A stretch of DNA of 64,000 bases from Candidatus Omnitrophota bacterium (lineage in GTDB: Bacteria > Omnitrophota > Gorgyraeia > Gygaellales > Profunditerraquicolaceae), in NCBI GenBank assembly GCA_028715415.1, contig JAQURX010000010.1, positions 3,668 through 67,667 on the forward strand, written 5' to 3'. Of this stretch, positions 39,459 through 60,520 are shown one piece after another (within the stretch, counting starts at the first letter, position 1; the number at the start of each line of letters is the position of its first letter). The notes beneath the pieces were generated by a model. It was not told the DNA's origin and made no database searches. It saw nothing but the letters and a program-made list of their open reading frames with translations. Position numbers and translations under genes: made by a program.

Positions 39459-39531
39459 GGGGCTGTAGCTCAGCTGGGAGAGCACTTGCATGGCATGCAA
39501 GGGGTCAGGAGTTCAATCCTCCTCAGCTCCA
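39459..39531 (+). tRNA. tRNA-Ala (anticodon GGC)
   Basis: Cloverleaf folded by hand: acceptor GGGGCTG/CAGCTCC with the G3:U70 Ala identity pair, anticodon loop atGGCat, TTCAATC T-loop, 73 nt, CCA not encoded. Confidence 0.85.
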
Positions 39532-39620
39532 CAAAATTTTTCGGACAACGAAAAATTTTGTGGCACTGAAGCGAGCGTTAAACGGCGCGACAAGCGCCGT
39601 AGCGAGCGGGAGTGCCACAA
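39529..39620 (+). other. Highly structured inter-tRNA spacer: 14-bp hairpin CACAAAATTTTTCG-gacaa-CGAAAAATTTTGTG plus GC-rich nested hairpin (GTGGCACT...AGTGCCAC enclosing ACGGCGC-gacaa-GCGCCGT); both apical loops GACAA
   Basis: Inverted repeats read directly from the sequence. Confidence 0.4.
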
Positions 39621-39631
39621 ATTATTCTTTC

Positions 39632-39714
39632 GCCGGAGTGGCGGAATGGCAGACGCAGCAGCCTCAAAAGCTGCCGAGGGCAACCTCATGGGGGTTCAAG
39701 TCCCTTCTCCGGCA
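39632..39714 (+). tRNA. tRNA-Leu (anticodon CAA), class II with long variable arm
   Basis: Acceptor GCCGGAG/CTCCGGC, anticodon loop ctCAAaa, 16-nt variable arm CGAGGGCAACCTCATG, discriminator A; 83 nt. Confidence 0.8.
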
Positions 39715-39720
39715 TTTTTT

Positions 39721-43669: not shown

Positions 43670-43684
43670 AATCCCTCCCGATAC

Positions 43685-45181
43685 CTAAAAACCGTACCAA
43701 TAATTAATTAAAGGTTTCTCACCTTGAGCTTTATCTTGAATTACATTTTTAATCCGGGTGTATTCTAAAAAGCCTTCTTTTCCTAATTCTTTCCCAAAGC
43801 CACTCTGCTTAAACCCGCCATAAGGAACTTCATTAAAAAACATCCCGTAAGTATTAACCCAGATTGTTCCTGCATTTATTTTACCGGCTAATTCGCTTGC
43901 TTTTATTTCATCTTTTGCCCAGATACAACCTGCAAGTGCAAAATTAGAAGCGTTAGCAAGCTCTACCGCCTCGGAAATGCTTGAGAATTTGCTTATGCAG
44001 GCAACCGGCCCAAAAACTTCTTCCTTAAAGATTTGCATCTGAGGCGAAACTTCAGTAATTACAGTAGGTTCAAAGAAAAATCCTGCTTTCAAAGCTTCAT
44101 CCTGCGGGATTTTGCCGCCACAAAGCACCTTTGCGCCTTCTTGCTTTGCTTTCTCCACAAAACCAATTACTTTATTTCTCTGTGACTCAGAAATTAAAGG
44201 CCCCATTTGAGTTTCAAAATCACTGCCAACCTCAAGCTTTATTCGTTTCGCTTTTTCAACAAAATCATTTATGAATTTATCGTATATGCTATCCTGAACA
44301 AAAATTCGCGACATCGCAGTACACATCTGGCCTTGATTTAAAAATATAGAACACAACGACCCATTAACCGCTAATTCAATATCGGCGTCGGACAAAACTA
44401 TGCTTGCTGACTTTCCGCCTAATTCCATTATTGCTTTTTTTACATTTACCGAAGAATATTCTGCAATCTGCCTGCCAACCTCATTACTTCCGGTAAAAGA
44501 AATCATATCAACACGCTTATCAGAACAAAGTAGTTTTCCTAATTTCTCTCCGCTCCCATTTATAATGTTTACAACTCCTTTGGGAAAGCTAGCTGCATGA
44601 ATAATTTTAGCTAAATATAGCGCTGTTAATGGAGTCAGGCTTGAAGGCTTTAGGATAACGGTGTTTCCCGCGGCAAGTGCCTGGGCTAATTTCCATGAAG
44701 CAATTAATAAAGGATAATTCCACGGTACAATAAGGACTACTACACCAACAGGTTCCCGGGTAAGCCGGCTGTCGGATTTTGAAATCTGAGTATTAATTGA
44801 AATTTTTTCCTCACTGAGGAATTTTCCAAAATTATTAGCAAAATAATTAAAAGTTTCTGCTGCTGACGGGATATCCATAAAAGTAGATTCTTTTATTGGC
44901 TTTCCATTATTTAGAGTTTCAAGTTGAGCAAATTCTGCAGCATTATCAAGAATGCCTTGTGAAATCTTTAAAATATAGTTTTTGCGTTCTTCCAAAGAAA
45001 TCTTCGGCCAAGTCCCTTTATCAAAAGCCTCTCTTGCGCCTGCTAAAGCCAATTCAACATCCTGTTCAGAAGCAACCGGAACTTCAGCAATGATTTCTTG
45101 TGAAGCAGGATTAATTATTTTTTGCTTTGCCTGCGAATCTTTAAACTCACCGTTAATATAAAGAAGGTATTTTTCTTGCAT
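43685..45181 (-). CDS. NAD(P)-dependent aldehyde dehydrogenase
   Basis: 498 aa; ELGGKSA catalytic-Glu motif, FTGSNEVGRQIA, catalytic Cys region QGQMCTAMSR. Confidence 0.85.
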   Translation of the reverse strand: MQEKYLLYINGEFKDSQAKQKIINPASQEIIAEVPVASEQDVELALAGAREAFDKGTWPKISLEERKNYILKISQGILDNAAEFAQLETLNNGKPIKESTFMDIPSAAETFNYFANNFGKFLSEEKISINTQISKSDSRLTREPVGVVVLIVPWNYPLLIASWKLAQALAAGNTVILKPSSLTPLTALYLAKIIHAASFPKGVVNIINGSGEKLGKLLCSDKRVDMISFTGSNEVGRQIAEYSSVNVKKAIMELGGKSASIVLSDADIELAVNGSLCSIFLNQGQMCTAMSRIFVQDSIYDKFINDFVEKAKRIKLEVGSDFETQMGPLISESQRNKVIGFVEKAKQEGAKVLCGGKIPQDEALKAGFFFEPTVITEVSPQMQIFKEEVFGPVACISKFSSISEAVELANASNFALAGCIWAKDEIKASELAGKINAGTIWVNTYGMFFNEVPYGGFKQSGFGKELGKEGFLEYTRIKNVIQDKAQGEKPLINYWYGF

Positions 45182-45183
45182 AA

Positions 45184-46185
45184 TTATTTAAACCTAACCA
45201 TAGTAAATAATTTAAACAACCTGCTAAAAGGAACATACCATTTGGAAAGTTGCCCCAATTGCCCGGATAATTTCATTTTGCCCTGAGTTACTGCGACGAA
45301 TGAATCGAGTTTGCCTAAAAAAACCTGCTCCCAAATATCTTTTGGAGCGCTGATAATAAAAGGGGCATCGGCATCGCTATCTAATCTGATAATCCTGCCT
45401 TTTTCAAAATTAAATTTATAAACAGCATCTGTTCCATCAAGCTTTATAGCAAGCTTTACAGTTAAATCAAGCTCCTTGCCTTTTGTTGCAATGAATTCAT
45501 CCTTATTAACCAAATCTACAATTGCCTGGATATGTTCTCTGGAAAACATTGGATACGCAGTTTCATGTTTAGTTAAATTATCCTTTAAAGCATTATCCAA
45601 ATCATCAAGCACATCTTTTTTAAATAACCTTGCTACAGCGGCAACCCTGATTGCTTCTTCTAAAGCCTCAGTCAAGCTAAGCGCATCTTCAAATTTTTCC
45701 CCAATAGCAATTGAGCCGTGATTCTTAAGCACGACGAGATTATTTGTCTTTAAGGCTTCAATTACCGGCTGAGGATTTGTTACAGTGGGAGTCTCCTGTG
45801 GAATTACCGGGACATCTCCTAAATAAAATTTGGTTTCAAAAGTTAAGGCTTTAAGCGATGAACAGACCGCAAAATAACCATTAATTATAGGTGGATGCGC
45901 ATGGATTACAACTTTTGCAGAAGAATTTTTATAAACTAAGCTGTGTAAAGGAAGTTCTGAACTAGGCTTAATACCCCCCTCAACTGTTCCGGAATTTAGA
46001 TCAACCTTAACTATATCAGCATCTTTCAACTGGCCTAAAGAAGTCCCAGTTGCAGTAATTAAAATTGATTCGTTATCAATGCGGCAGCTTAAGTTTCCCG
46101 ATTTTGCTACAGTCAAACCGACTTCATAAAGCCTCTTTCCAACCTTGATTATCTGCTCCTTTAAAACCTTTTCATTATCAGACAT
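45184..46185 (-). CDS. Class II aldolase/adducin-family protein fused to C-terminal SCP2-like domain
   Basis: N-terminal about 200 aa with metal-binding HAHPP...H pattern of fuculose-1-P aldolase/MtnB family; C-terminal about 120 aa ends TQGKMKLSGQLGQLSKW (SCP2 sterol-carrier-like). Confidence 0.6.
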   Translation of the reverse strand: MSDNEKVLKEQIIKVGKRLYEVGLTVAKSGNLSCRIDNESILITATGTSLGQLKDADIVKVDLNSGTVEGGIKPSSELPLHSLVYKNSSAKVVIHAHPPIINGYFAVCSSLKALTFETKFYLGDVPVIPQETPTVTNPQPVIEALKTNNLVVLKNHGSIAIGEKFEDALSLTEALEEAIRVAAVARLFKKDVLDDLDNALKDNLTKHETAYPMFSREHIQAIVDLVNKDEFIATKGKELDLTVKLAIKLDGTDAVYKFNFEKGRIIRLDSDADAPFIISAPKDIWEQVFLGKLDSFVAVTQGKMKLSGQLGQLSKWYVPFSRLFKLFTMVRFK

Positions 46186-46186
46186 T

Positions 46187-47122
46187 TTATACCTCTAAAT
46201 AAATGTGCTCTGCGATTAATTCATTTGGCGTTATATCAAAAGCCGGATAATATGCCTTTGCGTTTTTTGGAGCAAGGCAAAGCCCCTGAAATTCCAATAA
46301 TTCTTTATCAGGCCTTATTTCAATCTTAATGTCATTTCCTGTTTTTGCGTGGGATGGCGGCGGGCACAACACATAAAAAGGAATATTAAAGTGTTTGGCA
46401 AGTAAAGCAATTTGAAAGGTCCCGATTTTATTAGCGATGTCACCGTTTTGGGCTAAATTATCCGCGCCGACTAATACTTTACTGATTTTTCCCTCAAACA
46501 TTACCTGCGCAACCATATTATCTGTAATGATTGTTACAGGAAATTTTGCTTTCTGCAGCTCCCATGCTGTTAAACGCGAACCCTGAAGATACGGCCTGGT
46601 TTCAGTAACAAAAAAACTTACTTTTTTATTTTCCGCCCTGCAATATTCTCCGATTAGAGGAAGCAGCCCGCTGACATTGCAATGCGTAAGGATTACATCA
46701 CCGTCATTTAGCAGTTTGCTTGCTTTCTCCGCCTGAAGTATGCGTTTATTTTTCAGGCCTTCTAAAAAACCTAAGATGCATTTCTCTAACGGCATGTTTT
46801 TTTCAGCCCAACCTAACACCATGTCAGTTAAGAATTTAAATGACAGTGTCGGACGGGTAGCATTAATCGCCTCTGCAATTTTCTTTAAATCTGGCATTAA
46901 ATCTTTCTTACCCTTACTCTTGTTGATCTCAAGCAAAAAGATGTAAAAAACCAGGATTACCTGCCCAACAGCACGCGTTTTCATCTCTTTTATTGCCCTA
47001 CATGCCTGCTTGTAAGTTGTTGCCTTGATATATTTAACTTTATGAGGCAGCAAAGTTTCATCAAGAATATAAATTGCATTGTCTTTGAAACGGATCGGCC
47101 AGAAAAGTTCTGAGAATTCCAT
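46187..47122 (-). CDS. mtnA: MtnA/eIF-2B-family sugar-phosphate isomerase (methylthioribose-1-P or 5-deoxyribose-1-P isomerase)
   Basis: 311 aa, ILTHCNVSG and VGADNLAQNGDIANKIGTFQIALLAKHFNIPFYVLCP, the conserved core of the MtnA/e2B2 family. Confidence 0.65.
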   Translation of the reverse strand: MEFSELFWPIRFKDNAIYILDETLLPHKVKYIKATTYKQACRAIKEMKTRAVGQVILVFYIFLLEINKSKGKKDLMPDLKKIAEAINATRPTLSFKFLTDMVLGWAEKNMPLEKCILGFLEGLKNKRILQAEKASKLLNDGDVILTHCNVSGLLPLIGEYCRAENKKVSFFVTETRPYLQGSRLTAWELQKAKFPVTIITDNMVAQVMFEGKISKVLVGADNLAQNGDIANKIGTFQIALLAKHFNIPFYVLCPPPSHAKTGNDIKIEIRPDKELLEFQGLCLAPKNAKAYYPAFDITPNELIAEHIYLEV

Positions 47123-47128
47123 AATTAA

Positions 47129-47596
47129 TTATTCACCTTTCGGTTGGGTTGCTTGTAGCTTCTCTTTTTCATTCTTACGGATATCCTGATAATATTTTAT
47201 CTGCTCGGGGAACCTTAAATCGTCCTTGTTTAAATATCTGAAAAAGCAGATTAGAATGATATTAGACATATCCTCATTTTCATAAATCCCTAAGCCGTTA
47301 AAATATTTCTTTAATGGAGAATTATCAGGTTCAATCCATTTTCTGATCATCCATTGGCCAATTCCAAGGTGGAATTTAGCGAGAATTTGGTCATCTGCGG
47401 TCTTCCTGATATCAGACATTTCTTCATCAGAAAGATTTTTCTTTAAAGCATCAAAACATTCATCGATACTTCTTGGGATTTTTGACTGCTTTTTTACAGA
47501 TGCAACTGACTCTTCTTGGCCGTTTTTCCCTTCCGCTGCAAAGCTTAAACTATAAATTGCTAAAGCAACGACGAAGATAGAAAATTTTCTCAGCAT
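47129..47596 (-). CDS. Secreted hypothetical protein
   Basis: 155 aa, signal peptide, no recognisable motif. Confidence 0.3.
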   Translation of the reverse strand: MLRKFSIFVVALAIYSLSFAAEGKNGQEESVASVKKQSKIPRSIDECFDALKKNLSDEEMSDIRKTADDQILAKFHLGIGQWMIRKWIEPDNSPLKKYFNGLGIYENEDMSNIILICFFRYLNKDDLRFPEQIKYYQDIRKNEKEKLQATQPKGE

Positions 47597-47609
47597 ACCT
47601 CTCCTCCGA

Positions 47610-48359
47610 TTATTTTCCTTCTAATTTCTTAACTGTTTCAAGAGCAATTGTAATCAAGTTCGACTCTGCCATGTAATACATCGGATTCATAAATCCCATT
47701 TCACCGGTAATAACATTATCGCTTACTGCCAAAATTGACCCGGCCTTTACTTTGTAAGTCTGGGCGATAGTTAAAAGCGTTGAAGAAACCATATCTACTG
47801 CCATAGCTCCTTCTTTACGTTTTGCTTCAACTATTTCTCTTGTTTCGCGTAAAAGCGCATCAGTTGTCCATGCTGTGCCGCGGTGTACATTTAATCCCAT
47901 GCCTTTTGCGATTTCAAACATGGTATCGGAAATCTTCTTATCCGCAACTGTCTTAAAATCTTTATCAACATAATAAGGCGTTACCCCGTCGCCGCGGATA
48001 ACTTTATCAACAATAAATAAATCTCCAACCTTAATATTCTCATCAAGCGCACCGCAAGTTCCAATACGGATAATATTCTGAATTCCGGCATTACACATAA
48101 CTTCTGAAGTAATTGATGTATCAGTTGAGAACCTTCCTCCGTTAATTCCGGTGATTTTAATCCCTTGATACATGCCGGTATACATTGTGTATTCCATAAA
48201 AGAGAAATTCTTTACCGGATTCTCAATTTTCTTCATTAAGACTTCTAACCTATCCTTTGGCCCGGGAACAATTGCATATTTCCCCACATCCTGTGGACGA
48301 AGCTGCACCATTTGTGTTAAATCCTTGCCTGTCATGTGAATCTCTTTTTGCATTTGCAT
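47610..48359 (-). CDS. PNP/UDP-family nucleoside phosphorylase (candidate MTA/5'-deoxyadenosine phosphorylase)
   Basis: About 240 aa, RIGTCGAL and MVSSTLLTIAQ blocks align with the DeoD/Udp/MtnN phosphorylase fold (RVGSCGA, EMEAAG equivalents). Confidence 0.6.
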   Translation of the reverse strand: MQMQKEIHMTGKDLTQMVQLRPQDVGKYAIVPGPKDRLEVLMKKIENPVKNFSFMEYTMYTGMYQGIKITGINGGRFSTDTSITSEVMCNAGIQNIIRIGTCGALDENIKVGDLFIVDKVIRGDGVTPYYVDKDFKTVADKKISDTMFEIAKGMGLNVHRGTAWTTDALLRETREIVEAKRKEGAMAVDMVSSTLLTIAQTYKVKAGSILAVSDNVITGEMGFMNPMYYMAESNLITIALETVKKLEGK

Positions 48360-48857: not shown

Positions 48858-49766
48858 TTATCTAAACATTCCTTCTAAATTTCCACCCAAGATATCAGCT
48901 TTGTCTTCCTCGCTAATATCTAAATTCTTTACCGCAGCAATACCTGCGGAGAAATCTTTTTTTGCCGGCCAGTCGCTGCCCCACAATAAATGCTTAGGCC
49001 CTAGTAAATCAAGCGCCAATAAAAAATTAGTTTTAACTTTATCACCGCTTGTATCTACATAAATATTCTTTAAAAAGTCAGTAGGATTTCCTTTTAGATC
49101 CTTTACAAAATTTATCCCGCGCAGCATTTGATAAGTTGTGTCAAACCTGTGCTGTAAAAATGGGATTGCTCCTCCAAAATGCGCAAAAATGAATTTTACC
49201 TTGGGAAAATCGCGCAATATATCAGACATTAAAAGCTTGCCAATACACATCGTAGTATCAAAAACATATTCGATTACCGGAGTAAGCAAAGGATCGTTAA
49301 CCCTTTCAAATCCAATAGGATTAACTATCTGGGAATGCACAAAAATCGGCAGATTCTGCTCCTGGGCCTGCCTATATATAGGTAAGAACATAGGGTCATC
49401 CAGATACATCCCATTGTAGCTTGAAGCAAGAGAAATTGCCCTAAACCCAAGCTCTCCGGTAACCCTGGTTAATTCATCCTGAAGATTCTTGGCACTATCA
49501 ACCGGTAATACAGCAGCACCAATAAACTTATCAGGGTAACGCTTTAAAATCTTAGCTACATTATCATTAAAGAGCCGAGCTACAAGAGAAATACTTCCTA
49601 GCTTTAAATGTGCATCAGAAGTCGGATAACTTAACACCGCTTTATCAATCCCAGCTTCCCCCATCAACTTAACTTGAGACTCGATATCCCCCCAAGCTTT
49701 AGAGAAAAAATGGGCGTTCGTTATTATCTCATCCGGCAACCAATGTGAGTGCGCGTCAATTATCAT
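48858..49766 (-). CDS. Amidohydrolase-2 (ACMSD-like) family metal-dependent hydrolase/decarboxylase
   Basis: 302 aa, MIIDAHSHW N-terminal metal-binding motif typical of PF04909. Confidence 0.65.
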   Translation of the reverse strand: MIIDAHSHWLPDEIITNAHFFSKAWGDIESQVKLMGEAGIDKAVLSYPTSDAHLKLGSISLVARLFNDNVAKILKRYPDKFIGAAVLPVDSAKNLQDELTRVTGELGFRAISLASSYNGMYLDDPMFLPIYRQAQEQNLPIFVHSQIVNPIGFERVNDPLLTPVIEYVFDTTMCIGKLLMSDILRDFPKVKFIFAHFGGAIPFLQHRFDTTYQMLRGINFVKDLKGNPTDFLKNIYVDTSGDKVKTNFLLALDLLGPKHLLWGSDWPAKKDFSAGIAAVKNLDISEEDKADILGGNLEGMFR

Positions 49767-50224
49767 TAATGCTCCGTACTCTTTAAAATTCTTTCTGTCA
49801 TTTCAATTTCATAGAGAAACTTTATTTCCGCTAAAACTTTTTTCCCGAATTCTTTTACAATTACGCTTTCAATTGCCTTTAACTTTAAAACCAGAAAATA
49901 ATACTCTGGCCTAAGCCTGGCCCCATCAAATTTTAAATTATTTCCCTCAACCAGTTTATTCTGGATATAAACTTTAAACTCATCAATATATTTCTGAGCA
50001 AGCTTTGGCTTATCCAGCTTATTTAAATCTTTTAAGATAATCTTATCAATTTCAACCTGCGTAAACTTGCGTTCAATTTTATCAAGCGCTTCTTTTGTTG
50101 TTTTGTAGAACCACACTAAGTAGCGTTTCTTTAAGTTTTTCGTATCGAGCTTGTCCACAGTTGCCTCCTGCTTTATTGTGCCATTCCTGCGCAAATTGTC
50201 ATCCCTGCGAAAGCAGGGATCCAC
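49766..50224 (-). CDS. Hypothetical protein (annotated N-terminus reads through an intergenic palindromic repeat; the real start is probably internal)
   Basis: 152-aa ORF; its first about 10 codons are encoded by the hairpin repeat at 50198-50221. Confidence 0.3.
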   Translation of the reverse strand: MDPCFRRDDNLRRNGTIKQEATVDKLDTKNLKKRYLVWFYKTTKEALDKIERKFTQVEIDKIILKDLNKLDKPKLAQKYIDEFKVYIQNKLVEGNNLKFDGARLRPEYYFLVLKLKAIESVIVKEFGKKVLAEIKFLYEIEMTERILKSTEH

Positions 50225-50267: not shown

Positions 50268-51044
50268 TCATTTATTCGGATGTTCCTGCTTAAACGGAAT
50301 TACCGGAGCTGTCCAGGGAGTCTGCTGATTGATAATCGCAATCTCCAAAGGGCAAACATTCGCGGGAACAGTTAAAGCAAATTTTACTGCATTTTCAATT
50401 GCTTCGGTAGACATAAGCCTTGAGGCATCCCCGGTAATTTCTTTTAATTTACCGGTTAAATCAGTGTCTGTTACCCCCGGCAATAAAGATGTAACCTTAA
50501 TCCCATGATCACGCACCTCCCAGAATAAACCTTTTAGGAAAGCACGCAGCCCAACTTTTAATGAACTATAGACGATAAAATTTCTTGGCAAAGGATCGCA
50601 AAGTGTTGAACCTGAAACCATATTAATAATTGCGCCTGACTTAGCCTTAATCATATCATTAATGACTAAGCGAATTAACCGCACATATCCTAAATAATTA
50701 GTGTGCGCTAATCTTTCAAAATCTTCTATCGGTTGATCCTGAAAAGGATATTGGCTGGATACACCTGCGTTATTGATCAAAATATCGATTTTGCCAAATT
50801 TCTCTTTAGTTTTATTTACTAAATTATCCAAATCCTCTAACTTTGTGACATCACAGGCGATTGGCAATACCTCAACATTATATTTCTTTGCAATCTCATC
50901 TGCAGTTTCTTTTAACGGTTCAATTTGGCGCGCGGCAATAGCAACATTTACGCCTAAACTCGCTACTGTTGAAGCTAATGCCTTGCCAATCCCGCGGCTA
51001 GCTCCTGTTACAATCGCTACCTTACCTTTTAAATTATCACTCAT
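50268..51044 (-). CDS. Short-chain dehydrogenase/reductase (SDR), candidate ketoreductase
   Basis: KVAIVTGASRGIGK Rossmann motif, NNAG, catalytic YxxxK (YSSLK); likely start at MSDNL (51044). Confidence 0.8.
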   Translation of the reverse strand: MSDNLKGKVAIVTGASRGIGKALASTVASLGVNVAIAARQIEPLKETADEIAKKYNVEVLPIACDVTKLEDLDNLVNKTKEKFGKIDILINNAGVSSQYPFQDQPIEDFERLAHTNYLGYVRLIRLVINDMIKAKSGAIINMVSGSTLCDPLPRNFIVYSSLKVGLRAFLKGLFWEVRDHGIKVTSLLPGVTDTDLTGKLKEITGDASRLMSTEAIENAVKFALTVPANVCPLEIAIINQQTPWTAPVIPFKQEHPNK

Positions 51045-52164
51045 TACTCCTCCCTGGTTTAATCGGTGAAACAAAAAGCAATATTATTAATCCCAAACAA
51101 AAAATAATAAAACCAAAAGTAAAACTTTTTTGTAAAATTATGCCGCTTAATGCAGCTCCTAAGCCACCGGATACAAAACGCACGCTGCTATTTAAACTTG
51201 CCGCCTCATTTATAGAATCCCGCGGCAGGTCAGTAAGCATAGTTGATAGGCCTGCGTGGTTAAAAGTCCAGCCCAAACCCCAGATAACCATAATTATAGC
51301 AAAGACAAAAAGCGGAAGATGGAAAATCAAAAGAAAAATACTTAAAATCATTAAAATAATTCCTAAATCCACTGTCTTTACTCTGCCAAGCTTATCTGCA
51401 AGGTCTCCTCCGATAACCTCACCAAAAACTCCGCTTAAGCTTGTCAAAGTAATGAGCATACTGATTAAGAATTGCCCAAAACAAAACTTGGTTGAGAAAT
51501 AAACCCCTAACCACTGCTGAACCCCATGGTAAATTAAGCTGATAAAGAAGATATAAGTAAAAATTGCGAATATCTTTTTATCTCTTAAAACATCAAGGTA
51601 ATTTACCTTAAATTTAGTTAGATCACTTTTAAAACTAGGCAAATAAAAAAACATTACAATGCTCAAAATAAATCCAATTATCGCAGGAAGTATAAAGATA
51701 AGTCGCCAATAAATTATTCCGCTTAAAAATAACCCGGCAAGCGAAGCGACAAAGGTTGCGCCAAAAAATATTCCTACAAATTTTCCGCGTTTATCCGGCT
51801 CCATGTGCTTTGCTATTAAAACAAGCCCGAGGGGGATAACGGAAGCGCCGAAAAAACCCATTAAGAATCTTGCTAAGAAAAGAGTTTTAATATTTGCAGC
51901 AAAACCTGCTAAAAGATTAGCAACAGAGAAGAAAAAGATGGAAATCAACTCTACTTTTCTTGCATCTACCGCCCTGATTAATGGCCCGTATAAAAGTGCA
52001 GCTAAGCCATAAGGCAGCATATACATCCAGATAATCTTACCAGCTATAAACTGAGAAAGAACAAATTCATGGGCAATTGAAGGCACTATAGCTGCGCTTG
52101 CAGCGACATTAAACGAAAGAACAGCACCTTCTAAACAAAGGATGATAAAAGTAAATTTCTTCAC
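51037..52164 (-). CDS. MFS transporter (candidate exporter of the cluster product)
   Basis: 375 aa, 12 TM, MFS loop signature. Confidence 0.7.
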   Translation of the reverse strand: MKKFTFIILCLEGAVLSFNVAASAAIVPSIAHEFVLSQFIAGKIIWMYMLPYGLAALLYGPLIRAVDARKVELISIFFFSVANLLAGFAANIKTLFLARFLMGFFGASVIPLGLVLIAKHMEPDKRGKFVGIFFGATFVASLAGLFLSGIIYWRLIFILPAIIGFILSIVMFFYLPSFKSDLTKFKVNYLDVLRDKKIFAIFTYIFFISLIYHGVQQWLGVYFSTKFCFGQFLISMLITLTSLSGVFGEVIGGDLADKLGRVKTVDLGIILMILSIFLLIFHLPLFVFAIIMVIWGLGWTFNHAGLSTMLTDLPRDSINEAASLNSSVRFVSGGLGAALSGIILQKSFTFGFIIFCLGLIILLFVSPIKPGRSNE

Positions 52165-52604
52165 TTACTACTAGCTTCTCGCTCAATTACCTTTTTAAAT
52201 ATCTCTAAGTTTTCTTTGGAATGCTTATTAATAAACCCTTCCACCTGCTCGTCGTTAAACTTAGCTTTATCATCCATCTCAAAGTGTTGAATCCAAGTCA
52301 ACTCTATCCCCTGAGGTTTCGGCGTATAAAGCCAGATAATCTTCATGTATTTAAAAGGGAATTTCGGCTCATGCCTTTCGGCATAGGCAAAATACTTATC
52401 TTTAAAAAGCAGCCTCCAGGATACCCAGGATTTATCTTCATCATCAGTTAAACGGAAGGTAATTTTGTTATCTTTCTTCTCAACTACCTCTGCCTTTTTA
52501 TATTCTCCGCCGAATAGCTCAGTCCAGCGCGGGATATCATTAGAAATATCAAAAATTAATTCATAAGGTGCGTTAATAATTATGGAATTACAAGTATGCC
52601 CCAT
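52161..52604 (-). CDS. SRPBCC-superfamily protein (polyketide cyclase/aromatase TcmN-like fold)
   Basis: 147 aa, size and hydrophobic-pocket pattern of Polyketide_cyc2/START-like proteins. Confidence 0.5.
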   Translation of the reverse strand: MGHTCNSIIINAPYELIFDISNDIPRWTELFGGEYKKAEVVEKKDNKITFRLTDDEDKSWVSWRLLFKDKYFAYAERHEPKFPFKYMKIIWLYTPKPQGIELTWIQHFEMDDKAKFNDEQVEGFINKHSKENLEIFKKVIEREASSK

Positions 52605-52619
52605 TTTATTTCTCCTTTT

Positions 52620-52937
52620 TTACTCTTTCCCGAATAAGCTTAATAAAATTGCCAAGTCTTTCTTTGCGCTTAATGAATGAGGCGCATTTTTTGGCATAAA
52701 AATAAAAACCCCCGGCTTCATTTTAATCTTCTTTCCATTTAAAACAAAAATCCCTTCTCCTTTTAACACGGTAACTGCTGCTTCGCGGGTAGATGTATGC
52801 TCGGAGATATCGCTTCCTTTTGCTAAACACATCAAAGTATAATTAGAAGTGGGAGTCTTGACCAAAACTTTGCTGAAAATCCCTTCTTTGGGGAATTCCA
52901 TCATTTTTTCTAACTCTTTGAATATAGAATTTATCAT
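52620..52937 (-). CDS. Cupin-2 domain protein (TcmJ-like)
   Basis: 105 aa, two cupin motifs (G(X)5H..E...G and PxxxxH: ISEHTSTREAAVTVLKGEG...PKNAPHS). Confidence 0.6.
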   Translation of the reverse strand: MINSIFKELEKMMEFPKEGIFSKVLVKTPTSNYTLMCLAKGSDISEHTSTREAAVTVLKGEGIFVLNGKKIKMKPGVFIFMPKNAPHSLSAKKDLAILLSLFGKE

Positions 52938-52938
52938 T

Positions 52939-53736
52939 TTATATAATTGCTACAACTCTTGACCAGGCAGCTCCTGTATTTTTAATCTTTACCGGGAAAC
53001 AAATGATTTTAAATCCGGAGGAAGGCAGCTTTTCTAAATTTGCTAACCTTTCAATATGGATAAATTCTCTCTTGCGGCCGTAAAAATGCGCTGGATACAA
53101 ATACTTGATGTCTTTCTTCTCTAAGAATTCCTTAAGCATAAATCTATAAGGCCTATCTATCCCCATTGTATCTACCCCGAAGATTTTAATACCTCTATCT
53201 AAGAGATAATCAATCGCAGAAATATCAACCCCGGGATAGTCTGAGAAATATTTCGGCCCACCATATAACTTATCCGCCCCCGTATGCAGAATTACAATAT
53301 CCAATGGCTTTAATTTATAATTTACCTTTGCAAGGCCTGCTTCAATATCAGAAGCAGCAATAGTTTCGTTTGGTTTTTTATGAGTTAAATCAAGTTTTAC
53401 CCCATCTTGATAACAATATTCAAGGGGGATTTCTTCTGCAGTTTTTGCTGGGCGATTCTCTGAACGAGAACCGTAATGAAATGAATAATCAAGGTGAGTG
53501 CCGATATGAACCGGAGAATGCACAACTTCTAAAGAAAGAAACTCTTCATCCGGAAGGTCTTCTTTTTTTAAGATGCGTTTCCCTAAAGCATATTTAATCT
53601 TGCCTAAAAGAGTCTTGCCCATGATAACGCGGTTAAACTTCTCTACACCTGCCGAGTGAGTTACGCGTTCAATAGCTACTTTGTGTACTTCAAAAGCTTT
53701 ATCGTCTATAGGAAGGCTTAAGTCAATTATTTGCAT
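52939..53736 (-). CDS. Putative cyclase family protein (PF04199, kynurenine-formamidase-like fold)
   Basis: 265 aa with HSPVHIGTHLDYSFHYG (HxGTHxDxPxH) metal-binding motif. Confidence 0.65.
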   Translation of the reverse strand: MQIIDLSLPIDDKAFEVHKVAIERVTHSAGVEKFNRVIMGKTLLGKIKYALGKRILKKEDLPDEEFLSLEVVHSPVHIGTHLDYSFHYGSRSENRPAKTAEEIPLEYCYQDGVKLDLTHKKPNETIAASDIEAGLAKVNYKLKPLDIVILHTGADKLYGGPKYFSDYPGVDISAIDYLLDRGIKIFGVDTMGIDRPYRFMLKEFLEKKDIKYLYPAHFYGRKREFIHIERLANLEKLPSSGFKIICFPVKIKNTGAAWSRVVAII

Positions 53737-53758: not shown

Positions 53759-54004
53759 TTACGCCTTGATCAGTTTAGACTCAACCACTTTCACAATATC
53801 ATTTATAGTTGAAGATTTTGTGATTTCCTTAGGGCTTAATTTTGTACTGAATTCTTTTTCAAGCGCAATAACCGTTTCTACCATTTCCGTTGAGTCAACG
53901 CCAATACTCTCTAATAAACTTAAATCATCTCTTAATTCTTCTGGCCTTACTTTTAAGAGTTTTACAAGGCAGTCTTTAATTTTTTGTTTTGTATCCATTA
54001 TCAT
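53759..54004 (-). CDS. Acyl carrier protein
   Basis: About 80 aa from MIMDTKQK; phosphopantetheine-attachment context LESIGVDSTEMVETV (DS motif) in a four-helix-sized protein. Confidence 0.7.
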   Translation of the reverse strand: MIMDTKQKIKDCLVKLLKVRPEELRDDLSLLESIGVDSTEMVETVIALEKEFSTKLSPKEITKSSTINDIVKVVESKLIKA

Positions 54005-54008
54005 CTCC

Positions 54009-55469
54009 TTATATCTGCACTTCACCCTTTGTCGCTGCTGCTTCCCATTTATTAATTCCATTCATAACATCCTGAAAGCAAAGCTTAGCAAGCGGGTCAA
54101 AATTACTTTCCATAATCCGGTTGATTCTTCCGGGTTTTGAGAAAAATTCACGCATGCACCATGAACCAAGGCGCCCTAAATCTTCTGTAGTTAAATGGTC
54201 GGTTGGAATAACCGGATGCAGAAAATCCCAAGTACTGAAATCAACCTTCTTTGGATCCATCCAATTCTTCTTTAAAGCAATCCTCCACATTGGTGAATTC
54301 GGAGCAGGCGTAACGTAACCCACCCACATAATATCCGGATCCACTGCGTCGGTAAATTCAAACCGCTTCTTAATAATCTCCTCAGTATCATAATCAAAAC
54401 CCATCATAATATCGGCAACTATCGCAATATCCTGCTTACGCAAAATTTCAATCGTCTTTTGAATCTGGTCTATTGTGATACCTTTTGCTATTCTTTTAAG
54501 CTCTGACTGCGTTGTAACCTCTATACCAAATACGCCCATAAACAACCCTGTCTCTTTCATTAAAGGAAGGACTGATTCGCAATTAACCCAGTCAATTGCA
54601 CGCCCTAAAGATACCCATTTAATTGGGTTATTCGCTGCTTTTTTAAGCTCGCAGAATTTCTGCACTCTCTTGGGATCCACGTTAAAATTGTCATCCTGGA
54701 TAACTACAACCTTAACCCCGTATTTTTTATGCAAAAGATTAAGCTCTTCCATGACTCTTTCCGGGCTCTTTGCGCGCCACTTTAAGAAATCAGACGGTGA
54801 ACGCGGGTCAAACTGGTCCCATTCATAACAAAATGTGCACGCTGAAGGACAGCCTCGGGAAGTCACCATATCCACAAACGGCTTCCAATAAGTATGCCCC
54901 ACATATTTATCCATTGGAAATAAATCATAGGCGGGAAGTGGTAATTTATCCAAATCTTCCATGAGCGGCTTATGCGGGCCCATTACAATCTCACCATCAA
55001 TACGAGAAGTTACACCGCCCACATCTTTTAAACTTTTCTTTTTATCTATTGCCTCAATTAAATCTCCGAAAGATTCCTCTTCTCCCATTACTACAAAATC
55101 AACTGCCGGATTCTCTTCTAAAGTTGGTACTGGCATGGCCGAATACCACAAGCCGCCAAAGATTATCTTTGTTTTAGGTAATGCCTTTTTAATTTTTTGT
55201 GCTGCCTCTTTAAAATGCCTTAATACGCCGTATCCGCCATAACCATGCAACTGTTCACCCATTACAACAACATCAGGATTCTTCTCTTTAACCTGTTCAA
55301 CTAATTCATCCATGGGTGTTTGAAATGCTTTCCCGTCGATAACTGCAACATCGGTATAGCCTCTCTCGCGGACATATGCTGCCCAATGCGCATAGAGCTG
55401 ATTTGGGGACCTGTGGATTCCGTGCGTTGCCCATGCGCCTACCTTAGGCATTACAAATAGAATTTTCAT
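54009..55469 (-). CDS. Cobalamin-binding (class B) radical SAM enzyme
   Basis: N-terminal B12-binding Rossmann-like domain (MKILFVMPK...), radical SAM CPSACTFC (CxxxCxxC); 486 aa. Confidence 0.8.
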   Translation of the reverse strand: MKILFVMPKVGAWATHGIHRSPNQLYAHWAAYVRERGYTDVAVIDGKAFQTPMDELVEQVKEKNPDVVVMGEQLHGYGGYGVLRHFKEAAQKIKKALPKTKIIFGGLWYSAMPVPTLEENPAVDFVVMGEEESFGDLIEAIDKKKSLKDVGGVTSRIDGEIVMGPHKPLMEDLDKLPLPAYDLFPMDKYVGHTYWKPFVDMVTSRGCPSACTFCYEWDQFDPRSPSDFLKWRAKSPERVMEELNLLHKKYGVKVVVIQDDNFNVDPKRVQKFCELKKAANNPIKWVSLGRAIDWVNCESVLPLMKETGLFMGVFGIEVTTQSELKRIAKGITIDQIQKTIEILRKQDIAIVADIMMGFDYDTEEIIKKRFEFTDAVDPDIMWVGYVTPAPNSPMWRIALKKNWMDPKKVDFSTWDFLHPVIPTDHLTTEDLGRLGSWCMREFFSKPGRINRIMESNFDPLAKLCFQDVMNGINKWEAAATKGEVQI

Positions 55470-56704
55470 TACTTATCTCCTTTCTCAACTATCAATACTG
55501 AGTTTATTCCGCCTCTACCGCGGGAAATTATCATCGCCTTATTTATATTATGCGTTCTTGCTTCCTTTTGAACAAAATTTAAACCATCAACAGCAGGATT
55601 CTCTAAATTTGTTGTTGGAGGAACTAACTTATTTTCCATTGCAAGAAGTGTAATAATCATGTCTATTGCCCCGCTTGCTCCAAGTAAATTTCCGAAGCTT
55701 GACTTTGGGCAGCTTACGGGAATCTTTGCCGCATGCGCTCCAAATACACTTTTTATTGCAGCAATCTCAGAATTATCCCAGATATCCACAGCCAAACCAT
55801 CTAAACTGATGTAATCAATCCCCTCTGGATTAACCTTTGCATCAGCTAACGCTATATTAATCGCCCGGGCTAACTGTTTACCGTCGCGATCGGGATTAAT
55901 CCTGTCACGCCCGTCGCATGAAGTCCCATAACCGCTGATAAACCCTAAAACATTCACTCCTCTTTGCTTGGCCCGCTCAACACTTTCCATCACAACTATA
56001 CCAGCACCCTCTCCAATAACAAATCCGTCGCGTTTTTTATCAAACGGCCTATATGCTGATTCCGGATGTTCATTATTTCTTGAAAGCGCGCCGTATGTAT
56101 TACAGCAAAGCAGCGAATAAGGAGTAACGGGGGCTTCCATGCCTCCGGCTAAAATCATATTAAGTTTATTTTTGCTTAAAACTTTGCGCGCATAGCCTAA
56201 TGCCATTAAAGATCCGGCCCTATCAGCAACAACAGTTTTAGAAAATCCCTTTATCCCATAATAAATTGAAACCTGTCCTTGGGGTGCTGCGGGAAACCAT
56301 GCCGAAGCCATATAAGGAGAAACTCCCTCGCGGCCTTCAATATACAAATCGCGTAATTCTGTTTCAGCATAAAGCCAGCCGCCGATAGCGTTACCTAAGA
56401 ATATCCCAACCAATTTTGGATCTTCGTTTTTTATATCGATCTTCGCATCAAGAAGAGCTAACTCAGAAGCAATCAAGGCCATGTGAGAAAATGCGTCTAT
56501 CTTTTTAAGAAGCCGTTCTGAAACATGGCTGTATTTTTCCAAATCATCAATCTGTCCTGCAATATGCGAAGGGTACCTCGAAGCATCAAAACGCGTAATA
56601 TTCTTTATAAAGTTTCTTCCTGCCTTAACATTTGCCCAAAACTGCCGCTTTCCTATCCCGGAAGGAGCCACAACACCTATACCGGTTATTGCAATCTTAT
56701 CCAT
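55469..56704 (-). CDS. Ketosynthase-like protein lacking the Cys/His/His triad (chain-length-factor/KS-beta-like)
   Basis: Thiolase-fold KS N- and C-domains, but active-site positions read TVVADRAGSLMAL (no Cys), TSCDGRD and ISLDGLAVD (no His). Overlaps the upstream KS gene by 8 nt. Confidence 0.8.
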   Translation of the reverse strand: MDKIAITGIGVVAPSGIGKRQFWANVKAGRNFIKNITRFDASRYPSHIAGQIDDLEKYSHVSERLLKKIDAFSHMALIASELALLDAKIDIKNEDPKLVGIFLGNAIGGWLYAETELRDLYIEGREGVSPYMASAWFPAAPQGQVSIYYGIKGFSKTVVADRAGSLMALGYARKVLSKNKLNMILAGGMEAPVTPYSLLCCNTYGALSRNNEHPESAYRPFDKKRDGFVIGEGAGIVVMESVERAKQRGVNVLGFISGYGTSCDGRDRINPDRDGKQLARAINIALADAKVNPEGIDYISLDGLAVDIWDNSEIAAIKSVFGAHAAKIPVSCPKSSFGNLLGASGAIDMIITLLAMENKLVPPTTNLENPAVDGLNFVQKEARTHNINKAMIISRGRGGINSVLIVEKGDK

Positions 56705-57959
56705 TGTATCTCCTTAAAATTAAAGACGAATGAATCCCAGAAAAACCGCTACTTGTTTTAAGTATTGTGTTTACTTTTTTAGCCCTTGCAACATTAGGTA
56801 TATAATCCAAGTCGCATAAGGGGTCTTTTTCTTCCTGATTTATCGTAGGAGGAAGAATATTCTTCTCAAAAATCATACAACATATGGTAAATTCCACTGC
56901 ATTTGCCGCAGCCAAAGGATGTCCGATCATTGATTTAAGAGAACTAATCGGAAGTTTATAAGCATAATCACCGAAAATTGTTTTATATGCATTGGTTTCA
57001 AAGATATCATTCATACGAGTTGAGGAACCATGTGCATTGATATAATCTATTTCACTGGGCTTCATCCCAGCATCTTTAAATGCAAGATCAATGCAGCTGC
57101 TCATAGCCCCTCCATCCGAAGGAAGGTCTGTCATATGAAAAGCATTGCAGCTTGTGCCAAAACCCATTACTTCTGCATAAATACGCGCATTTCTTTTTAG
57201 GGCATGATTTAATTCTTCCAAAACCAATATCCCAGCGCCTTCAGAAAGGACAAACCCGTTACGCTTATTATCAAACGGCCGAGAAGCTTTTTCCGGATTC
57301 TCGTTATTAACTGCCAAAACATTAACTACATCAAAAGCGCCAAATGTAATTGGCGTAAGGGGCGCTTCTGCAGCGCCACAAATCATGATATCCTGCTCTC
57401 CATCCTGAATAGTCTCAAGGCCAAAACCCATTGAGTCTGTCCCGGCAGTACACCCTGTAGATAGAGTATTACAAATTCCTTTTAATCCATACCGGGCGCT
57501 AATCTCGATTGAGGGAGTATTAAACATCGCGGCATCATACAAATCAGGGCGGACCCTTGAAGGATCAATGGGATTCTTACCGTCGTCGGTAACAAGGGCA
57601 AATTCCTCTTCCATGTATTTTGTCCCACAGATAGCATTAGCAAGGCAAACCCCGACTCTTTCCGGATCTTCCTTAGAAAAATCAAGGTTACTATCTTTTA
57701 TCGCCATGTCCCCTGCTGTTACTCCAAACTGCACATATCTATCCATGCGCACTGCTTCATCATGGGTAAGCCCCAGTTTAAAAGGATCAAAATCCCTTGC
57801 CTCGGCGGCAATCTTTGTATTAAAAACAGAGACATCAAAACTATCCACTAACCTAACTCCAGACTTTCCTCCCGACATCCCTTTCCAGGCATTTTCCTTA
57901 CCAATACCATTGGGAGAAATCACACCGATACCCGTAATAACAACTCTACGCTTAGACAT
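56697..57959 (-). CDS. Beta-ketoacyl synthase (KS-alpha/FabF-like, catalytically intact)
   Basis: Active-site Cys in LSTGCTAGTDSMG; His in AFHMTD and NAHGSSTRMND; KSMIGHPLAAA C-terminal motif. Confidence 0.85.
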   Translation of the reverse strand: MSKRRVVITGIGVISPNGIGKENAWKGMSGGKSGVRLVDSFDVSVFNTKIAAEARDFDPFKLGLTHDEAVRMDRYVQFGVTAGDMAIKDSNLDFSKEDPERVGVCLANAICGTKYMEEEFALVTDDGKNPIDPSRVRPDLYDAAMFNTPSIEISARYGLKGICNTLSTGCTAGTDSMGFGLETIQDGEQDIMICGAAEAPLTPITFGAFDVVNVLAVNNENPEKASRPFDNKRNGFVLSEGAGILVLEELNHALKRNARIYAEVMGFGTSCNAFHMTDLPSDGGAMSSCIDLAFKDAGMKPSEIDYINAHGSSTRMNDIFETNAYKTIFGDYAYKLPISSLKSMIGHPLAAANAVEFTICCMIFEKNILPPTINQEEKDPLCDLDYIPNVARAKKVNTILKTSSGFSGIHSSLILRRYNG

Positions 57960-58565
57960 CTATTTGTTCTCCTTATTATCTTCTATCCTTTTAACCTTAA
58001 ACACTATATTCCCACCATCAGGGCAAGTTACTGTATCTATTGAGTCAGGGTCTTGCATAAAGAAAAACTTCGCTCCAAAGTTAAGCGCAAATAGCGCAGG
58101 AAAAGCACAATGAAAAGCAGCCCCACAAAACCCGGGGATACATTTAAGGCCTGTTGTTTCCCATTTATCACCTATCTTATAACCGAATGTGCATTTTCCT
58201 TTTGCCTGCACAACTTCGATAACCATCTTCTTCGGATTCGGACCTTTAAAACTCGGGTCTTTCGCTACTGTTTCGACCTTCCCATCCTTATCTAGAATCT
58301 CAGCTTTAAATTCTAGCTTCCCCCCGTCGGGACAAGTAACCAAAAGAGACCTCTGATTATCACGAAAAGGGAATTTCGCCCCGAAACTCAATGCATAAAT
58401 TACCGGGAACAAAGCATGCGCCAGCCCTAAACAAAAAAATTTCGGCGGATGCGTAAAATCTTCCAAAATAAGCTCATCACCTTTTTTATACCCATGATAA
58501 CACTCCCCGTAAACATTCATAACCGTGAGTTTTAATCTTGGAAATGGAGTATTGACTTCAGGCAT
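57960..58565 (-). CDS. Tandem-duplicated Cys/His-rich domain protein, unknown function
   Basis: Two homologous about 95-aa halves: C..GYK.GD....C.G.AH/FH..FP...AL.FGAKF.F......VTCPDGG...FK. Possible metal- or redox-site protein. Confidence 0.4.
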   Translation of the reverse strand: MPEVNTPFPRLKLTVMNVYGECYHGYKKGDELILEDFTHPPKFFCLGLAHALFPVIYALSFGAKFPFRDNQRSLLVTCPDGGKLEFKAEILDKDGKVETVAKDPSFKGPNPKKMVIEVVQAKGKCTFGYKIGDKWETTGLKCIPGFCGAAFHCAFPALFALNFGAKFFFMQDPDSIDTVTCPDGGNIVFKVKRIEDNKENK

Positions 58566-58566
58566 A

Positions 58567-59571
58567 TTAACTAAATAATCCTTTCGTATTGTTTATTAAC
58601 TCTTCCTTGGTGAAAAATCTCTTTGTTTTCTCAACTTGATGCACCATTTCTACTAATTTTGAATTTAGTGGGGCGCGTAAACTATTAGTTTTTGCTAAAG
58701 CGACAAATTCACCATTGATATAATCAACCTCTGAAAGCTTGCCTCTTTTAATACTTTGTAATATTGAGCCGTATAAAGGCTCCTTGCTTAAATTAGCCAT
58801 TATTCCTGAGAAAATCTTCGCTGCCTCCGTTGTCGGCAATGAAATTAATTTAGTAAGCCGCTCCAGTGGAAAGTCCGGTAAGGAAGCCAAATTAATCCTT
58901 GAGCCAGATACTATTTTATGGCCTTCCTTCCATATGCCGATACTTATACTGCTTATCTCCGGGCTGGCAAAACACTCTTGCATGCTTAAGCCTAAAATCC
59001 CCGGGATACAATTATTGGCGTTAACGAAAATCTTTAAATATTTCATTGCTTTAATATCGTCTGTGGCTACTACCGGGAAAATATCGCCAAGCAAAACCTT
59101 TACTTTAGAAACAAGCTCGCTGTTTTTAATAAACGCGCTCCCGATAATCCAACTTCCTTCAAAATTATGCACGACCGTGCCTGCTTCTAAATTAGTCGAG
59201 CCAAACATTACTATGCTAGAAATGATTTTTTCTCCCGAAAGAATCCTTGCGGCGATATCTTCTGCTTGAACGCCGTTTTGAGTAATAACGATTACTGAAT
59301 TAGCGATAAATTCAAGGTTTTCTTTTATCGCACAGCTTAAATCCTGAGTTTTTGTAGCAAAGATTGCTATGTCCGGGCAAAAATTAAGCCTCGTATCGGT
59401 GTCAATTTTTAAATCAAACTCACCCCTTACCCCGCAAATCTTTAAGCCTTTATTTCTGATTGCCTCTACCGCCTCTTTATGGCCGACGAGAAATACATTT
59501 TTGTTTTTTGACTTTAAATACCCTGCCACTAAAGCGCCTATTGCCCCGGCGCCAATAACTGCTATTTTCAC
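58567..59571 (-). CDS. ApbA/PanE-family 2-dehydropantoate-reductase-like NAD(P)H oxidoreductase
   Basis: MKIAVIGAGAIGALVAGYL Rossmann N-terminus, ApbA N- and C-domain layout, 334 aa. Confidence 0.7.
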   Translation of the reverse strand: MKIAVIGAGAIGALVAGYLKSKNKNVFLVGHKEAVEAIRNKGLKICGVRGEFDLKIDTDTRLNFCPDIAIFATKTQDLSCAIKENLEFIANSVIVITQNGVQAEDIAARILSGEKIISSIVMFGSTNLEAGTVVHNFEGSWIIGSAFIKNSELVSKVKVLLGDIFPVVATDDIKAMKYLKIFVNANNCIPGILGLSMQECFASPEISSISIGIWKEGHKIVSGSRINLASLPDFPLERLTKLISLPTTEAAKIFSGIMANLSKEPLYGSILQSIKRGKLSEVDYINGEFVALAKTNSLRAPLNSKLVEMVHQVEKTKRFFTKEELINNTKGLFS

Positions 59572-59870
59572 TTCAAGTTCTCCCCATTCTTTCTTGCAAG
59601 CGGCTGGTTATTATTCTTTGGGAATCCGAATTTTTTGTAATCAAATCCTGTTTGTTCCAAAAGCCTAATCATCATACTGTAGAATGGCGAAGGCACATCA
59701 GAAAAAAAAGCACCAACTACATCCTGCTCTTCAACTAATGCAGATTTTCTCTTAACAGCATTGTTTTCCGCTTCCTTGACTACGGCCTCTTCGGTAATAT
59801 GACGATGAAAGACTGGTATCTTAGAAATCATAAGATTAAGCTTTTCTTGAGTTGTTTTATCCCAATTCAT
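59568..59870 (-). CDS. Hypothetical protein, first gene of the biosynthetic operon
   Basis: 100 aa; 4-nt overlap with the reductase gene. Confidence 0.3.
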   Translation of the reverse strand: MNWDKTTQEKLNLMISKIPVFHRHITEEAVVKEAENNAVKRKSALVEEQDVVGAFFSDVPSPFYSMMIRLLEQTGFDYKKFGFPKNNNQPLARKNGENLK

Positions 59871-60169: not shown

Positions 60170-60520
60170 ATGGAGAACTTAGGTAAATCAGAAAAAGATA
60201 ATAGGATTTTTGAAAGATTTGCTGCAAATTTCCCTCTTAAGTACCTTGACCTTGATTATAATAAAGAAGGCAGTGCAAAAACATTGGATATCAGCGCTAA
60301 TGGATTGGGGATAACTACGGATGAATGCCTACCTAAACACTCCAACCTTGAATTATGGCTACAGATACCCGATATGGGACAGCCGCTTTATGCCAGAGCA
60401 AAGGTAATCTGGTCGGATAAGTCAGGAACAAATGCGTGTAGGGCGGGAATTAAACTGGAAAAAGCTGACTTTCTAGGGCTTGCGCGAGTTCTTAGAATTA
60501 TCGGGACAAGAAGAAACTAA
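60170..60520 (+). CDS. PilZ-domain (c-di-GMP-binding) protein
   Basis: 116 aa; RIFER (RxxxR) and DISANGLGI (DxSxxG) PilZ signatures. Confidence 0.75.
   Translation: MENLGKSEKDNRIFERFAANFPLKYLDLDYNKEGSAKTLDISANGLGITTDECLPKHSNLELWLQIPDMGQPLYARAKVIWSDKSGTNACRAGIKLEKADFLGLARVLRIIGTRRN

Follow-up and report, generated by a model that had tools for sequence, protein, structure and literature searches.

A ketosynthase-like protein lacking the catalytic triad as the probable chain-length factor of a clostrubin-like type II polyketide synthase in Omnitrophota

What is the function of a ketosynthase-like protein that has lost its catalytic triad and is encoded beside an intact ketosynthase (KS)? The question is raised by a 64,000-nucleotide stretch of contig JAQURX010000010.1 from a Candidatus Omnitrophota bacterium, referred to here as the window, in which a protein of 411 residues is encoded at 55469..56704 on the reverse strand and a KS of 420 residues at 56697..57959 on the same strand. 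An initial annotation, made from the sequence alone, proposed that the shorter protein is a non-catalytic partner of the KS resembling a chain-length factor (CLF). Our analysis supports that proposal through a neighbour-joining (NJ) tree, residue features typical of CLFs, adjacency to the KS and natural fusions of the two proteins. We put the probability at about 85% that the protein is an Arg-type CLF (KSβ), that is with arginine in place of the nucleophile, of a non-actinobacterial, 'ancestral' clostrubin-like type II polyketide synthase (PKS) carried on the Omnitrophota chromosome. Domain, alignment, conservation and tree evidence all enter into this assignment.

Both open reading frames (ORFs) were confirmed, and the thiolase fold is, as first described, otherwise conserved. 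Matches to PF00109 (2e-42) and PF02801 (5e-27) cover the full length of the 411-residue protein, and phmmer aligns residues 3-407 to Listeria FabF (PDB code 3o04) with an E value of 3e-84 and almost without gaps. Further sequence matches in the PDB include the actinorhodin (act) CLF, 1tqy_B, with an E value of 6e-76 and the act KS with 8e-64. An AlphaFold2 model, for which the input was a 29-sequence family alignment, was compared with the PDB using Foldseek and gives a TM score of 0.73 to FabF.

The active-site columns were assigned from the phmmer alignment to 3o04 and from several MAFFT alignments, all of which agree. The triad of FabF consists of C163, H303 (NAHGTS motif) and H340 (KSMTGH motif). 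In the 411-residue protein the nucleophile is replaced by R162 in the motif ADRAGS, H303 by D302 in SLDGLAV and H340 by N339 in KSSFGNLLG. The catalytic lysine is kept, as Lys334, and the gate phenylalanine of the GFGG loop has become Arg397. The initial annotation had placed the nucleophile position correctly at ADRAGS, and a check for an overlooked cysteine or glutamine in that column found neither, only the arginine. Of its two histidine positions, SLDGLAVD does correspond to H303, whereas SCDGRD lines up with DAYH, a motif whose histidine (His268 of 3o04) lies outside the triad; this placement gives a cysteine-to-histidine spacing of 105 residues against an expected 140. Complete loss of the Cys-His-His triad holds despite the misplaced histidine because the true third position, occupied by N339, is also non-histidine. 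With the triad absent, and with a TIGR03150 score of 376 bits against the equivalog cutoff of 494, the protein is not FabF, the housekeeping β-ketoacyl synthase II (KAS II). With such an active site it cannot carry out condensation by itself.

Could the protein then be a duplicate of the neighbouring KS that has lost its function and is decaying? Complete loss of the triad fits such an explanation, yet we regard its chance of being correct as negligible. An intact, full-length ORF is kept in 54 species and over 120 database clusters, the CLF gene has a median nonsynonymous divergence (pN) of 0.147 against a saturated synonymous value (pS) of 0.772, and the protein shares just 32% identity with its neighbour and falls in a separate, ancient clade. 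Strong purifying selection acts on the gene, and the conservation data exclude a pseudogene. The database clusters are 79-84% identical to the CLF, and all those with a source name derive from Candidatus Omnitrophica/Omnitrophota metagenome-assembled genomes (MAGs). A scan of species-representative genomes gave 64 loci, mostly titled Omnitrophota, at 58-90% identity. R162, D302, K334, N339 and R397 are invariant in 121/121 database homologues, across which 158 of the 411 columns (38%) do not vary, and equally in 54/54 full-length orthologues at species level, the most distant of them 62% identical. Loci L068-L083 of the same scan proved to be ordinary FabF genes, more similar to the KS than to the CLF, and were left out of the family; the cysteine, histidine, lysine, histidine and gate phenylalanine (C/H/K/H/F) are present in L068 and L069, the two in which this was checked.

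The relationship to CLFs is apparent from the NJ tree, which was rooted on FabF. All of the sequences that lack the nucleophilic cysteine form one clade, which includes the 411-residue protein, a Clostridium sequence (P0125), a Ktedonobacter protein, the act CLF and a Nocardia CLF. Within it the closest relative, in sister position, is a cluster from a Deltaproteobacteria-labelled MAG (58% identity), while the partner KS (KSα) is sister to the KS that adjoins P0125 in Clostridium. The protein also shares derived features with CLFs, namely the AWFPAAPQGQ motif and an aspartate in the H303 column. A protein of this clade from an unclassified MAG, P0150, has kept cysteine at the nucleophile position with alanine at H303 and methionine at the gate phenylalanine, and may represent an intermediate or reverted state in the evolution of CLFs.

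HMMER was run against representatives of 50%-identity clusters to collect relatives, and the 24 nearest single-domain KS homologues without the cysteine were tallied. Their nucleophile column holds arginine in 14, lysine in two (a basic residue thus in 16/24), glutamine, threonine and alanine in two each, and isoleucine and methionine in one each. Over the wider clade this column varies among R/K/Q/T/A/I/M, that of H303 among D/E/A/H/N and that of H340 among N/H/R/D/S, and the lysine column (K334) is retained in nearly all sequences. Taking the C163 / H303 / K335 / H340 columns in turn, and giving identity to the Omnitrophota CLF in brackets, the Clostridium beijerinckii and C. puniceum sequence P0125 (44%) reads R / E / K / H, the Ktedonobacter racemifer cluster P0133 (39%), annotated only as a KS-family protein, R / H / K / H, the Archangium sequence P0143 (38%) R / D / K / H, and the Nocardia sequence P0247 (37%), annotated as 'ketosynthase chain-length factor', Q / D / K / R. 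The act CLF sequence, taken from the PDB alignment, is likewise Q / D / K / R. Since the act and Nocardia CLFs are also without both histidines, loss of the triad is normal for CLFs.

The initial annotation implied that having neither cysteine nor glutamine at this position is an oddity. This was overstated, given the 14 arginines, that of P0125 among them. Judged by these residues, the sole departure from canonical CLFs here appears to be arginine for glutamine, and most of the nearest relatives carry that arginine too. In the literature searched (the Ktedonobacter preprint, a 2025 JBC review, a 2026 preprint on KS/CLF evolution and a catalogue from 2023), we found no mention of an arginine replacing the nucleophile of a CLF. 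That catalogue, which covers phyla with KS-CLF pairs, already includes Candidatus Omnitrophica (PMC10132072), and the finding of a CLF in itself changes little, a partner without triad or glutamine being normal outside the actinobacteria. The prevalence of arginine in the nearest non-actinobacterial CLFs does, however, bear on whether the glutamine of CLFs is needed for chain initiation.

Several observations weigh against identification as a CLF. By sequence score the protein lies slightly nearer to FabF structures than to the act CLF. The Foldseek scores are near-equal for FabF, the act KS/CLF and the AntDE pair, so that they speak for the fold only and do not separate a CLF from FabF, and the AlphaFold2 model is itself of moderate quality (pLDDT 64.5). 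The NJ placement carries no bootstrap support values. The glutamine that is the hallmark of actinobacterial CLFs, seen in the act and Nocardia proteins, is arginine here. Finally, conservation at the level of a housekeeping gene, a B12-binding radical S-adenosylmethionine (rSAM) enzyme and linked salvage genes, to which we return, are atypical for a secondary-metabolite PKS.

The invariance of the replaced residues raises another possibility, that the CLF has been neofunctionalised with R162, D302, N339 and R397 making up a newly evolved site for catalysis or ligand binding that might, for instance, hold the carboxylate of malonyl groups for priming or dock the rSAM enzyme or the acyl carrier protein (ACP). 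All four are constant not only in the 54 orthologues but also in the 58%-identical Deltaproteobacteria-labelled representative, a basic residue occupies the nucleophile position in most of the nearest relatives as tallied above, and the lysine persists through nearly the whole clade. With 38% of the family columns invariant, however, the constancy of buried residues is weak evidence, and the wider CLF clade varies freely at the same columns, as expected if no common chemistry were involved. We consider such a site improbable; a real binding role for the invariant arginine pocket is a possibility. Under the preferred assignment as a CLF, the four residues would instead fill and stabilize a vestigial pocket, for instance through Arg-Asp salt bridges, and would take no part in catalysis.

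The partner protein retains everything that the CLF has lost. KSα (56697..57959, reverse strand) matches PF00109 and PF02801 over its full length and has C170, H310, K342, H347 and F406 intact. At the KS-CLF junction (56697..56715, reverse strand) a strong Shine-Dalgarno (SD) sequence, AAGGAG at 56715-56710, is followed by a 5-nt spacer and by the CLF start codon, ATG at 56704-56702, ahead of the KS stop codon, TAA at 56699-56697. The coding strand reads AAGGAG-ATACA-ATGGATAA, and the 8-nt overlap with the intact KS described initially is therefore real. The following junction, from the CLF to the rSAM gene, is a 1-nt overlap (TAATG), again with its own SD sequence.

The KS-CLF junction, readable at both gene ends in 56 orthologous loci, is -8 nt in 14 of these, -7 in one, -4 in two, -1 in 18 and 0 to +3 in nine, so that 44/56 have tight junctions (-8 to +3 nt). 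This is the rule but not universal: spacings of +13 to +152 nt are found in ten loci and an apparent overlap of 119 nt (-119) in two. The two genes are adjacent in every locus that holds both. Natural KS-CLF fusions of 812-869 residues also exist among the relatives (P0122, P0128, P0132, P0136 and others), in which the N-terminal half has C/H/K/H/F and the CLF-like C-terminal half carries T, R or G in place of the nucleophile. The fusions provide independent, if indirect, support for physical association of KS and CLF. We infer that the CLF pairs with KSα as a heterodimer, and the initial suggestion of stoichiometric coupling would be consistent with the gene arrangement.

Which kind of PKS do these proteins belong to? 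The closest comparison is with the Clostridium locus. P0125 is very probably ClrB, the clostrubin CLF, and its upstream KS ClrA, as judged from the organisms and the locus and not from a match of accessions. C. beijerinckii and C. puniceum are the two known producers of clostrubin, and PMC7693217 cites their ClrB proteins as its CLF and treats them as an ancestral C20 CLF clade. Like the Omnitrophota CLF, to which it is 44% identical, the inferred ClrB has arginine at the nucleophile position (ADRAS), the lysine and an AWFPAAxQG motif, and its gene lies directly downstream of that for a KS; KSα is 46% identical to this inferred ClrA. At the two histidine positions the inferred ClrB reads E and H where the Omnitrophota protein reads D and N. 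Seven gene families are common to the two loci: KS, CLF, a TIGR04076-like ORF (45% identity), a PF04199 cyclase (48%), an SRPBCC protein (40%), an Amidohydro_2 protein (34%) and an ACP. On this basis the operon core is that of a clostrubin-like type II PKS. Absent from the Clostridium cluster are the B12-binding rSAM enzyme and the ApbA-like reductase; a FabH-like KSIII and phosphopantetheinyl transferases are present there.

Structurally characterized CLFs were compared as well. The act CLF (ActI-ORF2, 1tqy_B), approximately 33-37% identical, also lacks the nucleophile, has aspartate at H303, keeps the lysine, has lost the second histidine, is encoded downstream of KSα and falls in the same NJ clade. 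It differs in having Q161 in place of the arginine, arginine instead of asparagine in the H340 column, and F/T/F instead of W/A/L at the gate positions discussed below. The AntDE pair (PDB codes 6smo/6smp) is a structural neighbour according to Foldseek, and chain 6smo_B, which we assume to be AntE, matches the Omnitrophota CLF with an E value of 6e-56 and is thus more distant in sequence. AntE, the CLF of the AQ-256 anthraquinone PKS of Photorhabdus, is reported to have aspartate and no glutamine at the nucleophile position (PMC6638757). It thus offers another non-actinobacterial CLF without glutamine, with the reported aspartate where the Omnitrophota protein has arginine.

The operon that surrounds the pair lies entirely on the reverse strand and runs from about 59870 to 48858. 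It begins with a small DUF2621-like protein (59568..59870), the first gene of the conserved block, and continues with an NAD(P)H oxidoreductase of the ApbA/PanE family (58567..59571), conserved at this position, a tandem TIGR04076-family protein of 201 residues (57960..58565), KSα, the CLF, the B12-binding rSAM enzyme of 486 residues (54009..55469; PF02310 and PF04055) and an ACP with the phosphopantetheine-binding DS motif (53759..54061). The listed ACP ORF has 100 residues; translation probably begins at M20 or M22, giving about 79 residues, as orthologues have 77-79. Beyond the ACP follow a PF04199 'putative cyclase' of the OxyN-like polyketide cyclase family (52939..53736), a small Cupin_2 protein (52620..52937) found in a subset of the orthologous clusters, an SRPBCC/Polyketide_cyc2 protein resembling the TcmN-like monodomain aromatase/cyclases (52161..52604), a major facilitator superfamily (MFS) transporter (51037..52164) that is a probable exporter and occurs in many of the clusters, a short-chain dehydrogenase/reductase (SDR; 50268..51074) that is probably the polyketide ketoreductase, a conserved protein of 152 residues without a family match (49766..50224) and an Amidohydro_2 family protein (48858..49766) that the Clostridium cluster and the Deltaproteobacteria-labelled one share.

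The PKS block is syntenic in Omnitrophota loci L003-L067, comprising at least 50 species, and in the Deltaproteobacteria-labelled locus L084. In most loci the identities are 79-88% for the KS, 76-84% for the CLF and 79-93% for the rSAM enzyme. As it is conserved to this housekeeping degree over dozens of uncultured Omnitrophota species, the block offers a clearly delimited candidate for expressing a type II PKS of an anaerobic candidate phylum in a heterologous host. On one Omnitrophota contig the orthologous cluster and an intact FabF (C/H/K/H/F) are approximately 340 kb apart, which indicates that the KS-CLF pair is an extra system and not the fatty acid synthase (FAS) of the cell.

The TIGR04076 protein directly upstream of the KS consists of two repeats with CPDGG motifs. 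The 175-residue Clostridium ORF with which it shares identity is placed directly downstream of the CLF gene (L001, 11260-11787), and in L084 a protein of 196 residues is the likely counterpart by position and has no family hit. No Pfam family, solved relative or functional literature was found for the TIGR04076 protein, which is a candidate for an uncharacterized accessory protein of type II PKSs in anaerobes. In the Omnitrophota contig L003 the otherwise syntenic cluster is interrupted by an inserted gene for an IS200-type Y1 transposase (12992-13654), with the ACP gene on one side and the cyclase gene on the other.

By analogy with the act system, C170, H310 and H347 of KSα would catalyse iterative decarboxylative Claisen condensations on malonyl-ACP, and the CLF would serve as the second half of the dimer, closing the acyl tunnel at the interface and so setting the chain length. 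According to mutagenesis work on the act and tcm CLFs, the positions that gate the tunnel of the act CLF are F109, T112 and F116. They were mapped onto the Omnitrophota protein with an 8-residue numbering offset, which also places Q161 correctly, and correspond to W110, A113 and L117, all invariant; the inferred ClrB has W/G/L. This likeness allows the weak guess that the product has a chain length near that of clostrubin. With no glutamine and both histidines lost, decarboxylative priming of the Gln type by the CLF is unlikely, and the KS subunit of the heterodimer would most likely be responsible for priming. The nascent poly-β-ketone may then be reduced by the SDR and folded by the TcmN-like and OxyN-like cyclases. 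The Amidohydro_2 family includes non-oxidative decarboxylases of aromatic acids, and decarboxylation would probably fall to that enzyme, with modification by the B12-binding rSAM enzyme. An aromatic polyketide as the product seems to us to follow best from the gene content.

A different product has to be weighed, since a related arrangement is known from the putative ladderane cluster of anammox bacteria. Here the pair would be KS/CLF-like but would serve a specialized fatty-acid or lipid pathway, with the triad-less FabF homologue tuning the chain length of a FAS-type KS and the B12-binding rSAM enzyme remodelling the chain. AmxFabF2 and amxFabFmut have been shown to form a KS/CLF-like heterodimer in which the triad of amxFabFmut is fully mutated and priming is performed by the KS subunit (preprint 10.64898/2026.05.19.726425). 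The cluster of amxFabFmut resembles the Omnitrophota operon in having an adjacent intact KS, a B12-binding rSAM enzyme and a dedicated ACP. In favour of a lipid product are also the translational coupling of the rSAM gene to that of the CLF, the weak match of the enzyme to TIGR04072 ('lipid biosynthesis B12-binding/radical SAM'), the very high conservation across a phylum, an MMPL transporter that flanks the Deltaproteobacteria-labelled cluster and antiSMASH 'ladderane' calls in Omnitrophota MAGs (PMC9902471). These calls could be misleading, triggered by the combination of KS, CLF, B12-binding rSAM enzyme and ACP.

Other evidence makes a lipid pathway a poor candidate, and we think it very unlikely. 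The TIGR04072 score is 72 bits against a cutoff of 360, and the best NCBIfam match of the enzyme is to BchE, the anaerobic cyclase, at 208 bits, which is higher though below its cutoff; the match is not to a methyltransferase family. The chains of PDB entry 9s5h, which we take to be the anammox pair, match the 411-residue protein less closely (E values of 6e-59 and 9e-51) than the act CLF does (6e-76). AmxFabFmut has valine or threonine, not arginine, at the cysteine position, and its gene lies upstream of that for the KS, whereas the CLF gene is downstream here. The anammox cluster has a FAS-type context with FabZ and a phytoene-desaturase homologue and is without aromatic cyclases. Neither of these nor an enoyl reductase was found in the conserved block or elsewhere in the window, which does contain the PF04199 and SRPBCC cyclases characteristic of aromatic polyketides and the seven families held in common with Clostridium.

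We return to a clostrubin-like PKS as the preferred reading, and to what surrounds the CLF gene, for the more interesting aspects lie there: the conservation of the cluster, the inserted BchE-like rSAM enzyme and the linked salvage genes. The rSAM gene lies between those for CLF and ACP in most Omnitrophota loci, and upstream of the KS gene instead in the deeper-branching Omnitrophota loci L055-L057 and in L084. The enzyme might carry out oxygen-independent tailoring of the polyketide. Adjoining the PKS block, at 42110-48359 on the reverse strand, are genes for a PNP_UDP_1 phosphorylase, an IF-2B/MtnA-like isomerase and a class II aldolase-SCP2 fusion, together with an aldehyde dehydrogenase and an AMP-binding ligase. 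From the domain families, this set is predicted to be a salvage route for 5'-deoxyadenosine or methylthioadenosine (MTA) of the dihydroxyacetone phosphate (DHAP)-shunt type, ending in acetaldehyde, acetate and acetyl-CoA. The salvage genes stay beside the PKS/rSAM cluster both in Omnitrophota (L003, 504-6653) and in the Deltaproteobacteria-labelled MAG (L084, 18447-21242), where aldehyde:ferredoxin oxidoreductases replace the aldehyde dehydrogenase.

These features permit a broader proposal, which we regard as doubtful but worth recording. The Arg-type KS/CLF pair would be the core of a conserved pathway of many Omnitrophota and the Deltaproteobacteria-labelled lineage and not of a dispensable antibiotic cluster. 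Its product would be an aromatic polyketide made in abundance and modified without oxygen by the BchE-like rSAM enzyme, perhaps a redox carrier of the quinone type or a constituent of the envelope, and a high flux through the pathway would keep the genes for 5'-deoxyadenosine salvage (phosphorylase, isomerase, class II aldolase and aldehyde oxidizer) linked to the cluster.

The remainder of the window is of housekeeping character, encoding SecA, a release factor, leucyl-tRNA synthetase, MurJ, a type III glutamine synthetase, Amt and Lnt. A protein of 1507 residues (29176-33699, reverse strand) has only a GNAT acetyltransferase recognized, at approximately residues 1120-1210, and is otherwise without a family match. 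Just three genes with a family match lie on the forward strand, for a cation-efflux protein (9907-10785), a PilZ protein (60170-60520) and, just past the end of the cluster region, a 304-residue ORF with a LAGLIDADG-like homing-endonuclease domain (39490-40404).

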